Source: a virus
Taxonomy: Duplodnaviria > Caudoviricetes
Virus record (IMG/VR): IMGVR_UViG_3300031994_000011
Coordinates: 32,001 to 96,000 of that record
DNA length: 64,000 bases
Strand: one strand, 5' to 3'
Position 1 is the first letter of the stretch; every line of letters begins with the position of its first letter. The notes under the pieces are model-generated. The model made no database searches. It had not been told where the DNA came from and saw only the letters and a program-made list of their open reading frames with translations. Shown here one piece after another: positions 18,760 through 30,232 of this stretch. The translations under genes were made by a program, and so were the position numbers.

Positions 18760-18900
18760 TGGGGTGTAGCCAAATGGTAAGGCAACGGACTTATCAGGAT
18801 AGCATAACGCAATGCGCTCCGGCAGGAGAGAAGCGTGGGTCATAACCAGCTCCTGATGCAATGACTCCGTGATTTGCTGGTCCGATTCCAGCCACCCCAG
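18760..18900 (+). tRNA. tRNA-Gln(UUG) with a 69-nt tRNA-like insert (18793..18861)
   Basis: Removing the insert restores ACGGA-CT-TTG-AC-TCCGT; U1:A72 acceptor. Confidence 0.9.
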
Positions 18901-18923
18901 CTATTTTATTATTGGAGGCTAAT

Positions 18924-19364
18924 ATGCGTCAAATTATTATTGTTCGTAAAGATTTGAATATGAATTCCGGTAAACTTGCGGCACAGGTGGCGCATGCTTC
19001 CTTGGCTTTTATTTCTAATGCTATTCGTAATTGCGTAGAATGTTCAAGTTTAAGTCAAAATTATCTTATAAGTTTGAAAATTCCAAAAGATGTATACGAA
19101 CAGTGGTTCTGTGGAATATTTACTAAGACCGTTTGTGAAGCCAAAAATCACAGACAAATAATGAAAGCTATATCTATTGCCGAAGAGATTGGTCTTAAAG
19201 AAGGCACAGATTTTTTTCTCATTAAAGATGCTTGCCTTACAGATCTAGAACCAGAAGAAATCGATGAAAATGGGCAAGGCCGTACTCTTACTTGTATTGG
19301 TTTCAGGCCTCTTGACGATGAGACAGCTTGGAAAATTTCTAAAAAATTTCAACTGTATCACTGA
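18924..19364 (+). CDS. pth2: Peptidyl-tRNA hydrolase, Pth2 family
   Basis: QIIIVRKDLNMNSGKLAAQVAHAS, IKDACLT and TCIGFRP motifs. Confidence 0.9.
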   Translation: MRQIIIVRKDLNMNSGKLAAQVAHASLAFISNAIRNCVECSSLSQNYLISLKIPKDVYEQWFCGIFTKTVCEAKNHRQIMKAISIAEEIGLKEGTDFFLIKDACLTDLEPEEIDENGQGRTLTCIGFRPLDDETAWKISKKFQLYH

Positions 19365-19444
19365 TGCTATTAGTGCCCAAATCATGTCTCCATGATTTAC
19401 TGGTCCAGACTCAGCTTTGCAACTTTTTATTTTAGGAGGTAATT

Positions 19445-20017
19445 ATGGATCTTAATAGTGATGCTAATTATGACAATAAATTTTATGAAGTTTATCCTTC
19501 TCTTGAGGTGTCAGAAGAAGTAAAAAAAGAAAATAAACGTCTTTGTGATACTTATCCTTTTTTAATTCCTTCTAATCGTTTTAGTGGAAAGCGCATCAAC
19601 AGTGGTGAGGAAGGATACTGGCCAGGGACTCCAGAAGTAATGCCACAATGGGACTATGAATATACTGAATTAGATGAAATGCCAGACGGTTGGAGAAAAG
19701 CATTTGGAGAACAAATGTGTCAAGAGATAAAGCAAGCACTTCTTGATGTAGGTGAAGTTGGAGAAAAATTACTTGATAGATATAGAATAGTACAAATTAA
19801 AGAAAAATATGGATATTTGCGTTGGTATGATAATTTTTCTACTAATAAAATTCAAGGAATAATTCGTAAGTATGAAACCATTAGTCAATATACTTGTATA
19901 CATTGTGGCGCGCCCGCAACTAAAATTACTCGTGGATGGATTATGCCGGTTTGTGATGCTTGCGTTCCAGAGAATACTGACACTTTGCCTGTTAAAGAAT
20001 ATTGGGAGAATTGGTAA
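19445..20017 (+). CDS. Conserved phage hypothetical protein
   Basis: QIKEKYGYLRWY motif and a C-terminal CxxC pair. Confidence 0.7.
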   Translation: MDLNSDANYDNKFYEVYPSLEVSEEVKKENKRLCDTYPFLIPSNRFSGKRINSGEEGYWPGTPEVMPQWDYEYTELDEMPDGWRKAFGEQMCQEIKQALLDVGEVGEKLLDRYRIVQIKEKYGYLRWYDNFSTNKIQGIIRKYETISQYTCIHCGAPATKITRGWIMPVCDACVPENTDTLPVKEYWENW

Positions 20018-20088
20018 TGAAATTGTATACAAGTTATTGGGCACTGATAAAATAAAATCTTATATTGGTGAATTAAAGGAGAATTTAA

Positions 20089-20307
20089 ATGTATATAATT
20101 CCTTGTCCTAAATGTGGAAGAATGCCTAAAATTTATGAATGTATTCCAATAAAAGAGAAAAGACATAGAATAATTTGTTGTCCTAATCTTTGTTCTGTTA
20201 TCTCTACAAAAGAAAATGGATTTTTTAAATTTTATGTCACATATTTAGGAAATGGAGATGACAATACTCTTTTTAAAGAATGGAATAAAATGTTATCTAT
20301 TGACTAA
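20089..20307 (+). CDS. Small Cys-rich hypothetical protein
   Basis: CPKC; RBS. Confidence 0.6.
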   Translation: MYIIPCPKCGRMPKIYECIPIKEKRHRIICCPNLCSVISTKENGFFKFYVTYLGNGDDNTLFKEWNKMLSID

Positions 20308-20358
20308 TAATAAAAATTATATTATAATATATATGTAAGAAAGAGAAAGGAGAAAGAA

Positions 20359-20733
20359 ATGAAAATTATTGATTTTGAGCGTAAGGGCAATATAGTTCGT
20401 TTTTATCTTGGAGAAGACAGTCTTACTGAATGGTATGGCGATGATTGGGATGATGTGCCCTACGAGCATAATGCTGGAAGAGTTTATGATGAATTTATCT
20501 CCTCCTATAAAGATATAGCTTTTCCTTTTGATTTCACAGTGTTGGAACCTAAGAATGATTATCATTTCAATGGAAATTCTCCTTGGAGTAAAAAAGATAT
20601 GATTGCACGAAAAGTACCATGTATTATAGTAGCTCCAAAGGATGATGAATTCTGGGCAGATGAAAGTTTTATACTTTATGTTGCAAATGATAATGTTCAA
20701 AGATTTTACTTTGGCGATAAAATGGAACCTTAA
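20359..20733 (+). CDS. Hypothetical protein
   Basis: Promoter and RBS; WYGDDWDDVPYEHNAG. Confidence 0.75.
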   Translation: MKIIDFERKGNIVRFYLGEDSLTEWYGDDWDDVPYEHNAGRVYDEFISSYKDIAFPFDFTVLEPKNDYHFNGNSPWSKKDMIARKVPCIIVAPKDDEFWADESFILYVANDNVQRFYFGDKMEP

Positions 20734-20763
20734 TATTTAATATATAAAATATAGGAGAAAATT

Positions 20764-21315
20764 ATGAATAGTATGCTTAATGGAATGTTTGGAAAAATTG
20801 CCCCTGGCATGTGCCGTGTCTCTATGAATGGTGAAATTGCTATTAAAACCTCTAATGGTTATAAGACATATAATGTAGAAACTGGTACGCTAACTAATTG
20901 TGATAATTTCGCATTTGATATTGGTGAAGATTTCTTCTTCATTATCCCAACCAATAAAGTTCACAAGGGAGACATTATTCTCGCGGGCGGTAAACCTCGT
21001 TGCGTAATTGAAGCCGCGGCGAATGAAATTAAGACATTCTGCTATGAGGATGGTACTATTGGAACTATTGTTCCCGAACACCACATGTTTATGGGTAAGC
21101 AGTATTTCTATGGTAAGATTGTCTCGATGTTCGGTAATATGATGAGCGAAAAGGGTGGCATGAATAACATGATGAAGTATATGATGATGTCTGAAATGAT
21201 GAAAGGCAACAGCAATACTAATTCTATGCTACCAATGATGTTCATGATGAACGGCGGCCTTAACTTTGACGGAATTTTTGATATGGACGAAGAGAAAGAA
21301 AAGGAGGATAAGTAA
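20764..21315 (+). CDS. Hypothetical protein with Met-rich C-terminus
   Basis: RBS; first gene of a tightly coupled three-gene unit. Confidence 0.75.
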   Translation: MNSMLNGMFGKIAPGMCRVSMNGEIAIKTSNGYKTYNVETGTLTNCDNFAFDIGEDFFFIIPTNKVHKGDIILAGGKPRCVIEAAANEIKTFCYEDGTIGTIVPEHHMFMGKQYFYGKIVSMFGNMMSEKGGMNNMMKYMMMSEMMKGNSNTNSMLPMMFMMNGGLNFDGIFDMDEEKEKEDK

Positions 21316-28497: not shown

Positions 28498-28573
28498 TTA
28501 GTCTTTTAAAGTTATTTGTAATAGTTAAATAACTCTCGTTTTGGTGAAGTAAAATATTCGGGGTATTTAATGT

Positions 28574-28814
28574 ATATGGTGGCGGAATAGGTAGACGCTA
28601 AGCTACGGTTGGCTGATAATGAGAACAGGTGTGGTTCGATTCCACGTAGAGAGAAGCTCTGCATTTGGTTCAACTCCAGATGCATAAAACCCAGAGGGTG
28701 GGTGCCTGAGTAAAGTGTAGCAGAAGATGACGCTATAATGTTGATGCGCACAACGTATAGTAGTTAGTTGCGAAACGAAACTATTTCCTGTGAGGTGCAA
28801 ATCCTCACCCATAT
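28574..28814 (+). ncRNA. tRNA-like RNA 3 (6/6 fold, internal extra T-loops)
   Basis: ATATGG/CCATAT; same D and T arms; internal GTGG-TTCGATT-CCAC. Confidence 0.75.
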
Positions 28815-28932
28815 GCCAGATTAGCTCAATTGGTAGAGCAATCGCCTTGCGGAAATACTAGAAATAGTCAGTGCAATTCTGATGTTTCCGACTATAAGCG
28901 ATAGGCTTTCGGTTCAAGTCCGGAATCTGGCT
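28815..28932 (+). tRNA. tRNA-Thr(UGU) with a 45-nt tRNA-like insert (28850..28894)
   Basis: Removing the insert restores ATCGC-CT-TGT-AA-GCGAT. Confidence 0.9.
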
Positions 28933-28956
28933 TATTAAAATAAAAAGGAGTTAAAT

Positions 28957-29160
28957 ATGAAAACTTTTAAAGATACCTATAAGGATACTTATAACTTTGA
29001 ATATTGGCCTGATGAAAATAACGATGAATCTTCTGTAAGATTAAGTTATGATGTAAATGGCGCACTTACAATAGAAGGGTTTCAAGAAATGTGTCGTTCG
29101 TTTGCTTTTGCCCTTGGTTTTGAAACAAAAAATATTGACAAATATTTCCCAACCGAATGA
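28957..29160 (+). CDS. Hypothetical protein
   Basis: RBS and ORF. Confidence 0.7.
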   Translation: MKTFKDTYKDTYNFEYWPDENNDESSVRLSYDVNGALTIEGFQEMCRSFAFALGFETKNIDKYFPTE

Positions 29161-29238
29161 CGGAATGTAGCTCAGCTGGTTTAGAGCGCTTGTCTGATAA
29201 ACAAGAGGTCAGTAGTTCAAATCTACTCATTCCGACCA
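29161..29238 (+). tRNA. tRNA-Ile(GAU)
   Basis: CTTGT-CT-GAT-AA-ACAAG; ACCA end. Confidence 0.95.
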
Positions 29239-29595
29239 TGAGGGAAGTTCTCTCTTATGCGTAGACCTCCCCGACAGGAGCGAGCAAAGCCTCTAGGAAT
29301 AGAGACAATTCAGCAAATAAAAATGAGAAAATTATGTATGGGTGCTCCTCTACAGACATAAAAATGTCTTTAAGAGAAAAAACTTACGACTAGCTAGCGT
29401 AATAATGGATAGTTTAGGGTTTTATTCCATTAATTGCGTCTGTTCACTCGACTAGCAGTGTACCACAACAAACAACATAAAACTTTACAAGAGGGAAGTT
29501 AGTGGTTTCAACTCTTTTTATAGCTATAAAAATCCCATAAAAACTTGGACATAAAAGTCTAAAGAAGCTAAGTAAGGGTTTATATGCTTCAAATT

Positions 29596-29681
29596 GGGAG
29601 GATACTCAAGTGGCTGAAGAGACGCGCCTACTAAGCGCACAGAGGTACATGCCTGCGTGAGTTCGAATCTCACTCTTCCCG
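29596..29681 (+). tRNA. tRNA-Ser(ACU), class II
   Basis: GGGAGGA/TCTTCCC-G; loop CT-ACT-AA; long variable arm. Confidence 0.8.
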
Positions 29682-30100
29682 TCTAATATTTGACTTCTTT
29701 TTAAAATTATAATATAATAATTATATAAGAAAGAGAGGAGAGAATAAAATGAAAGTTATTTTCTTGAACAAAAAGGAAAAAGAAACTCTTATTAAATTAT
29801 TAGCTCCACTAATTATAACACCAGGATGTTCATATGAATTAACAACTATTTTAGAAAAACTAGATTGGAAAACATATGAATTAGTTTTTAAACATCCTGA
29901 ATTATTTGACAATAAATAAAAATTATATTATAATTATTATGTAAGGCGAGAACAGCAAAACTTTAATAGAACAAATCTTTAGTGAATAGATTCCTTCTTT
30001 AATATCGCCTTGTTTATAAGTTATTTAGGAGCTTTGATACGGTATTAAGCTTAATACTCGCCGCAGACTGCAGTGAACAAATCCTAAATAACTATTTTAT

Positions 30101-30232
30101 GCGGATATGGTGGAATAGGCAGACACCTCAGACAGCAGGTGCGCAGTCGTTACAATTGGGGCAGCACCAATACCTGCTACCATTAAAATCTGATGTCCTC
30201 TGGACGTGCCGGTTCGAGTCCGGCTATCCGCA
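30101..30232 (+). tRNA. tRNA-Leu(UAA) with a 49-nt tRNA-like insert (30134..30182)
   Basis: Removing the insert restores TCAGA-CT-TAA-AA-TCTGA; the insert ends ACCTGCT-ACCA. Confidence 0.9.

Follow-up and report, generated by a model that had tools for sequence, protein, structure and literature searches.

How can a transfer RNA (tRNA) gene serve a phage when its anticodon loop is broken by a second, tRNA-like sequence? This question is raised by a 64,000-nucleotide (nt) stretch of a phage of the Caudoviricetes (hereafter the window), which comprises bases 32001-96000 of IMG/VR record IMGVR_UViG_3300031994_000011, a 171,958-base-pair (bp) genome with direct terminal repeats. The sequencing runs that contain this phage are sheep gut metagenomes. 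Its genes for tRNA-Gln, tRNA-Lys, tRNA-Thr and tRNA-Leu are each interrupted by a short insert. The phage under study is labelled G000 below, and other G and L labels denote other phage genomes or fetched loci. As a single judgement on the explanation as a whole, we give roughly even chances that the four inserts belong to a recurring phage family and are true introns, excised by the trimming that forms tRNA ends, after which a phage ligase rejoins the exons.

Split genes were searched for with the Rfam tRNA model RF00005 and with ARAGORN in its default and intron-allowing modes. The four genes (Table 1) match RF00005 from end to end, interrupted by a large local gap at the anticodon loop. None of the four was found by default ARAGORN and all four were found when introns were allowed, with insert lengths of 69 (Gln), 75 (Lys), 45 (Thr) and 49 (Leu). 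The intron positions and amino-acid calls of ARAGORN were unreliable here, as the Lys gene was called Gln, the Thr gene Ala and the tRNA-Asn of L115 Thr; the Thr gene contains C3:G70 and is therefore not a tRNA-Ala. The first-look filter of the genome search also overlooks split tRNAs. As a reading of the sequence without database searches (hereafter the sequence-only reading) had claimed, cutting out the inserts restores all four loops, which are exactly 7 nt long, stand on perfect 5-bp anticodon stems, carry U33 and a purine at position 37, and present the anticodons UUG, UUU, UGU and UAA. The insertion points that it gave, after nt 34 (Gln), 35 (Lys), 35 (Thr) and 32 (Leu), were confirmed. 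Neighbouring cut points yield different anticodons, and the bodies of the tRNAs and the intact tRNA repertoire favour the chosen ones. Contigs from two sheep gut metatranscriptomes (X3 and X4) and two DNA runs (X5 and X1) were compared, as contigs only, with positions 18500-30300; in X5, intron-less tRNA-Gln and tRNA-Lys contigs of other organisms part from the window exactly at 18792 and 23986.

The inserts share one architecture (Table 1). A stem starts at the first nucleotide, its 3' strand is abutted by a hairpin of 5 bp and a 7-nt loop, and a single-stranded 4-nt tail of the pattern N-C-N-A follows (GCAA in Gln, GCCA in Lys, ACUA in Thr and ACCA in Leu). Only the Thr and Leu inserts have a perfect hairpin; a single bulge interrupts that of Gln, and that of Lys is degenerate, the last point having been noticed in the sequence-only reading and borne out by the table of stems and hairpins. 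The Thr and Leu inserts are clean 7+5-bp minihelices, giving a 12-bp acceptor/T-arm stack as in tRNA. When the stretch was searched with R1, a tRNA covariance model built from 41 phage tRNAs, the Gln and Lys inserts aligned from first to last base with model positions 1-75 (20 bits at an expectation value (E) of 3.6e-6, and 15 bits at 9.5e-5, respectively). Hairpins that resemble a D arm and an anticodon arm, and whose loops are non-canonical, fall within these end-to-end alignments; the inserts of Gln and Lys are therefore worn-down whole tRNAs, and those of Thr and Leu are top halves. Stem and hairpin together arise in shuffles of a single insert at a frequency of 0 to 7e-5, and the fold z-scores of the inserts are weak (-0.8 to -2.7). 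The common plan that had been proposed for the four inserts is strongly supported, and was even understated.

A strict detector was applied to about 2 megabases (2.03 Mb) of phage DNA gathered through pattern and protein searches, with four demands: a stem at insert nucleotide 1, an abutting hairpin, a 4-nt tail, and flanks that restore the anticodon arm. It gave 21 hits in real phage loci versus 0-1 in shuffled DNA, and identified seven further distinct members in six other phage records (Table 1); the remaining hits were ordinary tRNAs with AT-rich flanks. The resulting 11 distinct introns from seven phages have one common geometry despite insertion after nt 32, 34, 35 or 36 in outer tRNAs of five kinds. 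In every case, the spacing between the two anticodon-stem strands equals a 7-nt loop plus the 4-nt tail, so that 11 unpaired bases flank the stem, and removal of the intron leaves a perfect anticodon stem and an exact 7-nt loop in the outer gene. Two of the inserts are full-length: that of L025 is a 77-nt tRNA-like element with a G-CCA end, and one in G005 is a 75-nt tRNA-Gly(UCC) that ARAGORN calls as a normal gene.

Across these 11 introns, 75 of 77 acceptor-like pairs are formed, with three to six pair types per position. All 11 end the T stem in a G-C pair, have C as the third base of the T-loop, and carry C second and A fourth in the tail; the first intron base is G in eight of them. These marks match G53-C61, C56, C74, A76 and G1 of real tRNAs. 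Absence of covariation in the insert stems had been named as an observation that would count against the sequence-only reading; the stems do covary within the family, with tRNA hallmarks fixed. Covariation was assessed across the family because no orthologues of the introns of G000 were found, blastn against the phage collection giving no match. The relatives reached via a DUF2828 protein (L001 and L002) showed no split tRNAs within the fetched DNA, a metagenome scan for the Thr exons gave one chance match in non-tRNA DNA, and an additional pattern scan for such introns added no new members. A narrow species-genome scan for split tRNA-Asn of one D-arm type found none; its 13 matches were ordinary tRNA-Asn genes in which the downstream word occurred by chance.

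Table 1. Split tRNA genes, introns and other features. Coordinates refer to the window; members of the family in other phages are given by record.
Feature	Position	Strand	Details
Split tRNA-Gln(UUG)	18760..18900	+	exons 18760-18792 and 18862-18900; RF00005 50.3 bits, model 1-71; loop and anticodon stem restored
Split tRNA-Lys(UUU)	23952..24099	+	RF00005 52.3 bits
Split tRNA-Thr(UGU)	28815..28932	+	RF00005 54.5 bits
Split tRNA-Leu(UAA), long variable arm	30101..30232	+	RF00005 40.9 bits
Gln intron, 69 nt, degenerate cloverleaf	18793..18861	+	stem 18793-18799/18851-18857 (7/7); T-like arm 18833-18850, one bulge; tail 18858-18861
Lys intron, 75 nt, degenerate cloverleaf	23987..24061	+	stem 23987-23993/24051-24057 (6/7); weak T arm; tail 24058-24061 (GCCA)
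Thr intron, 45-nt minihelix	28850..28894	+	stem 28850-28856/28884-28890 (7/7); tail 28891-28894
Thr intron T arm	28867-28871/28879-28883	+	5/5 pairs; 7-nt loop 28872-28878
Leu intron, 49-nt minihelix	30134..30182	+	stem 30134-30140/30172-30178 (7/7); tail 30179-30182 (ACCA)
Leu intron T arm	30155-30159/30167-30171	+	5/5 pairs; loop 30160-30166
Further introns, Asn-GUU			G004/L115, G007/L162, L025; detector
Further introns, Asn-GUU and Lys-UUU			G005; detector
Further intron, Gln-UUG			G006/L054; detector
Further intron, Ile-UAU			G008/L009; detector
RNA-ligase nucleotidyltransferase domain, 215 amino acids, Rnl2 family, without C-terminal domain	15016..15663	+	PF09414 66 bits; phrog_548; candidate sealing enzyme
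Calcineurin-type metallophosphoesterase near the ligase	13998..14588	+	PF00149; phrog_547; possible end-healing enzyme
Near-consensus sigma-70-like promoter	18514..18542	+	11/12 matches, consensus match only; precedes the cluster of suppressor tRNA, odd tRNA-like element and split tRNA-Gln
Perfect sigma-70-like promoter	29906..29934	+	12/12 matches, consensus match only; upstream of split tRNA-Leu

Phage tRNA genes also harbour a much larger and distinct class of inserts of 40-65 nt (L007, L010, L015, L016, L021, L022, L030 and many others). Most of these lie behind nt 28/29, within the anticodon stem's 5' strand. One family of this class has a hairpin followed by a conserved ACAGCAA word and a second ends in a GAGTTACTTC-like word; such inserts share phages with minihelix introns (G005, G006 and G008).

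The tRNA repertoire indicates that the outer genes are needed. Intact tRNAs of G000 comprise Pro, two Ile, a CUA suppressor, Arg, Gly, Asp, Asn, Ser and one odd tRNA, and the four absent from this set, Gln, Lys, Thr and Leu-UAA, coincide exactly with the split genes. Two near-complete relatives, G001 and G002, whose PurZ-like protein is 89-93 % identical to that of G000, have no split tRNA and encode intact Lys-UUU, Thr-UGU and Gln-UUG; Leu-UAA is intact in G001 as well. The anticodon of the split gene is likewise absent from the intact sets of G005, G006, G007 and G008, and the sole tRNA-Gly of G005 is nested inside its sole tRNA-Asn. That the anticodons missing from the intact sets are carried by intact genes in the intron-free relatives argues, indirectly, that the outer tRNAs are needed and hence restored, and the split genes are probably functional.

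Three further tRNA-like genes of the window are unusual. The tRNA-Ser at 29595-29683 has the anticodon ACU, with A at the wobble position where GCU is usual. The tRNA-like gene at 25724-25796 (32.4 bits) has an anticodon loop of 6 (or 8) bases containing UUUG, is given a 2-base anticodon by ARAGORN, and might be either a Gln tRNA that has decayed or an unusual decoder. An odd 108-nt tRNA-like element at 18648-18755 separates the split tRNA-Gln from the CUA suppressor tRNA. Its D arm is of Ser type, its 'anticodon' loop measures 6 nt, and the same canonical T-loop occurs in each of two hairpins (RF00005 24.7 bits, under the cut-off; fold z-score -2.96). It was considered as a fifth split tRNA and rejected, with no consistent intron solution.

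How might such introns be removed? They can be regarded as tRNAs, worn-down tRNAs or top halves of tRNAs (acceptor stem, T arm and N-C-N-A) lodged in the anticodon loop of another tRNA. As the intron spans exactly tRNA position 1 to 76, the proposed route would be the cell's own tRNA end-trimming. RNase P would cut at the first intron base, leaving a 3'-OH on the 5' exon, and an endonuclease would cut right after the last A of the tail (position 76), leaving the 3' exon with a 5'-phosphate. The two halves would stay together through the outer acceptor, D and T arms while an ATP-dependent phage RNA ligase resealed the anticodon loop. We infer each of these enzymatic steps. RNase P accepts as substrates minihelices whose 3' end is RCCA, and the features expected of them (7-bp and 5-bp stems, a 7-nt loop and an R-C-C-A end) are present here, with perfect stems in Thr and Leu and an exact CCA in Lys and Leu; T4 Rnl1 seals breaks in anticodon loops. 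The geometry follows the insert rather than the outer tRNA, the borders are those of tRNA ends and the marks used in end processing are kept, which makes the combination of RNase P, endonuclease and ligase the most economical reading. The roles that the sequence-only reading suggested for the inserts, control of timing or protection of anticodons against host anticodon nucleases, found no support in this analysis.

Two candidate sealing enzymes are encoded by G000. The sequence-only reading assigned the sealing to the Rnl2-type ligase at 15016; the domain is present, as a lone nucleotidyltransferase domain, and a T4 Rnl1-like ligase of 382 amino acids (G000 6181-7329, outside the window) is, by analogy with T4, more likely to be the sealing enzyme, the 15016 protein being a possible one. 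A tRNA-repair cluster at G000 2767-7329 (L243 768-5330) comprises an AAA_33 kinase with an HD phosphohydrolase, a dCMP deaminase, a Thg1-like 3'-5' polymerase and the Rnl1-like ligase. PF09511 Rnl1-like ligases were identified in G000 and G007 and in neither of the intron-free G001 and G002, where a homologue of the 15016 protein was not found either. Among the other intron carriers, G007 has both ligase types (PF09414 and PF09511) and G005 has a PF09414 protein only. No RNase Z-like, splicing endonuclease (PF01974) or RtcB (PF01139) gene was identified in G000, and the nucleases would therefore be those of the host.

Several observations weigh against excision by end-trimming and ligation. 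The 3' cut is the weak step, with no candidate enzyme in the phage: the majority of RNase Z enzymes cleave behind nt 73, with CCA acting as an inhibitor, and an exonuclease trimming from the 3' end would destroy the 3' exon. An exact CCA tail is found only in the Lys and Leu introns; the other two tails are not CCA, and the T arm of Lys is degenerate. The 4-nt-tail rule is broken, by a shorter tail or a leader, in the tRNA-Asn of G006/L149 and in L156, L187, L189 and L191. It is also broken in L019, a 236-kilobase (kb) phage contig, where the anticodon loops of two tRNAs (3871-4021 and 5005-5157) have inserts of 79-82 nt that consist of a 5' hairpin and then a minihelix that begins away from the splice site, a Lak-like form that differs from that in G000. 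Ligase presence is unspecific: the co-occurrence of introns and ligases, which the sequence-only reading had proposed as a check, is suggestive only, because G002 carries another PF09414 protein yet no introns. A kinase/HD protein and a metallophosphoesterase would be superfluous if the ends were already 3'-OH and 5'-phosphate. Moreover, contigs of the RNA libraries X3 and X4 span the unspliced Gln and Thr genes and the junction of the Lys intron with its 3' exon, and no exon-exon joint was found among the joints listed for contigs of the RNA runs. Taken by themselves, the RNA contigs neither support nor refute splicing.

The same RNA libraries cover a nearly open-reading-frame-free region at 24400-25600, which includes a DUF3800-I RNA match (57.3 bits) at 25281-25386. 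Summed contig depth over this region amounts to thousands in the RNA libraries versus about 90-270 in the best DNA run (X1), and the region is probably a set of highly expressed non-coding RNAs.

The healing genes just mentioned would find a use if some phage or host endonuclease read the tRNA-like fold and cut at its borders to leave 2',3'-cyclic phosphate and 5'-OH ends, which the kinase/HD protein or the metallophosphoesterase would heal and the Rnl1-like ligase would seal, as in T4 tRNA-Lys repair. We regard this course as unlikely, though it is the strongest competitor. The healing genes of G000 fit it equally well, which weighs further against end-trimming: the AAA_33 kinase with its HD domain, the Thg1-like protein and the Rnl1-like ligase are clustered, the metallophosphoesterase adjoins the 15016 ligase, and an intron carrier, G007, possesses both ligase types. 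However, no candidate endonuclease was found in G000, where PF01974 is absent, and the gene set is a standard counter-defence against anticodon nucleases that can be explained without introns. The conserved C74, A76, G53-C61 and G1 are also more simply understood as signals for tRNA-maturation enzymes.

The inner element, rather than the outer tRNA, might instead be the product, the outer gene offering a mobile tRNA-like element a place to land or a processing scaffold, with its halves left unjoined as pseudogenes or decoys. The nested tRNA-Gly of G005 looks functional, mobility is suggested by near-identical acceptor stems that recur in introns of unlike genes, the tRNA-Gln of G006 and the tRNA-Asn of both G004 and G007, and the RNA contigs show the unspliced form only. 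Against this, each of the 11 outer genes has a perfect anticodon stem and an exact 7-nt loop once its insert is taken out, the outer anticodons are missing from the intact sets, and intron-free relatives retain those tRNAs; the Thr and Leu inserts lack an anticodon arm and cannot be decoding tRNAs. We consider this alternative improbable, and more so than healing and sealing of nuclease-cut ends.

That the inserts are small self-cleaving or self-splicing ribozymes is very improbable: hammerhead-like words occur in the Thr insert and other short motif-bearing inserts are common in phage tRNAs, but no Rfam ribozyme or group I match was obtained at E up to 10 in 18500-30400, and the inserts, at 45-75 nt with a terminal A rather than G, have weak fold z-scores and no conserved core beyond the T-loop and tail. 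Hammerhead, twister, pistol, hatchet and HDV-like models were all without a match in that search, and the hammerhead reading of the Thr insert was dropped for want of an Rfam match. Group I introns were rejected on the length of the inserts, their terminal A, 5' exons that end in U, U, G and C where a U is expected, and the lack of an Rfam match. A bulge-helix-bulge, with its 4-bp helix between two 3-nt bulges, was also rejected, as a single helix here has flanks of 1-4 nt (5') and 7-10 nt (3'), and PF01974 and PF01139 are absent. Both classes had been set aside in the sequence-only reading, and are excluded as far as tested.

Other features of the region concern the coding and context of the phage. 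A PurZ-like (adenylosuccinate-synthetase-like) protein at 22168-23244 of the window is 89-93 % identical in eight other rumen phage contigs and may point to 2-aminoadenine DNA. The tRNA and repair region (13000-23300) has no in-frame TAG in the open reading frames read as genes, with a possible exception at 19364-20017, and the genes from about 26.7 kb on (26700-35600) contain many, for example 23 in 33156-35555; this pattern fits early genes that can be read ahead of suppressor-tRNA synthesis. A full ROOL RNA (312-314 bits) lies beside the tRNA arrays of relatives (L115 4803-5382 and L116 4630-5209), and a more distant relative has a partial OLE-like match of 84 bits (L001 7350-7492).

Introns of this kind are already known, but are unexplained and barely described, and G000 is a further member. 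In Lak megaphages, 'enigmatic' tRNA introns were reported, including one in tRNA-Thr(UGU) that may in turn code for a tRNA (Devoto et al. 2019, PMC6784885), and a jumbo-phage survey of alternative codes stated that such introns "could encode another tRNA" (Anim Microbiome 2026, PMC13037316). The claim that the mechanism was not known to have been described stands in so far as full-text searches found no paper proposing a mechanism for such introns, these two proposing none; the possible occurrence of a tRNA in the intron had been reported in 2019 and 2026. The phages in those papers resemble G000 in having a short insert in a phage tRNA gene, a possible tRNA in the tRNA-Thr(UGU) intron and a recoded TAG, but no anatomy rule, family or mechanism was given. 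At 172 kb, G000 is no megaphage, in contrast to the Lak phages, and in two of its four introns the tRNA shape has shrunk to a minihelix. What is added here is a non-jumbo genome with four such introns, in which cloverleaf and minihelix forms occur together, as well as the exact spacing rule, the conserved tRNA marks, the repertoire argument and the contrast with intron-free relatives.

T4 Pnkp and Rnl1 repair anticodon-loop breaks; as in T4, a phage ATP-dependent ligase would act at the anticodon loop, and G000 has an Rnl1-family protein and a kinase/phosphoesterase, whereas the T4 break is damage by a host nuclease and not the programmed removal of an encoded insert. tRNA-like elements are cut out by RNase P and RNase Z in mitochondrial tRNA punctuation and in the release of mascRNA from MALAT1. 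There too, a tRNA-shaped element in a longer transcript sets both cut sites via end-processing enzymes, but the flanks stay unjoined, whereas here they are the halves of another tRNA and need ligation. Archaeal and eukaryal splicing (EndA/Sen with RtcB or Trl1) shares with the process proposed here a protein-dependent cutting and ligation and a short intron in the anticodon-loop region; it differs in that here the 5' site abuts a helix, a 4-nt single strand lies on the 3' side only, and PF01974 and RtcB are absent. Group I introns of bacterial and plastid tRNAs have the same anticodon-loop location, tRNA-Leu(UAA) included, but measure 200 nt or more, with a P1-P9 core and a terminal G, in contrast to 45-75 nt, no core and a terminal A.

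To our knowledge, tRNA introns of bacteria and their viruses are thought to be removed by self-splicing only. We tentatively put forward, at somewhat less than even chances, a third, protein-based tRNA splicing pathway in phages, in which the universal enzymes of tRNA end maturation, RNase P together with a 3' endonuclease that cuts behind position 76, would release an intron that is a tRNA or the top half of one, an Rnl1-type ligase would join the exons, and the nested gene of G005 would yield two tRNAs. The anatomy rule, according to which the intron runs from tRNA position 1 to 76 with 11 unpaired flanking bases, gives exact predicted cut sites. Default tRNA finders overlook such genes, and phage tRNA repertoires and the codon-usage arguments built on them are therefore incomplete. 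If true, the proposal would turn tRNA end-processing together with an RNA-repair ligase into a splicing system, would explain the Rnl1-type ligases found in many large phages, and would represent a new way to pack two tRNAs into one gene.

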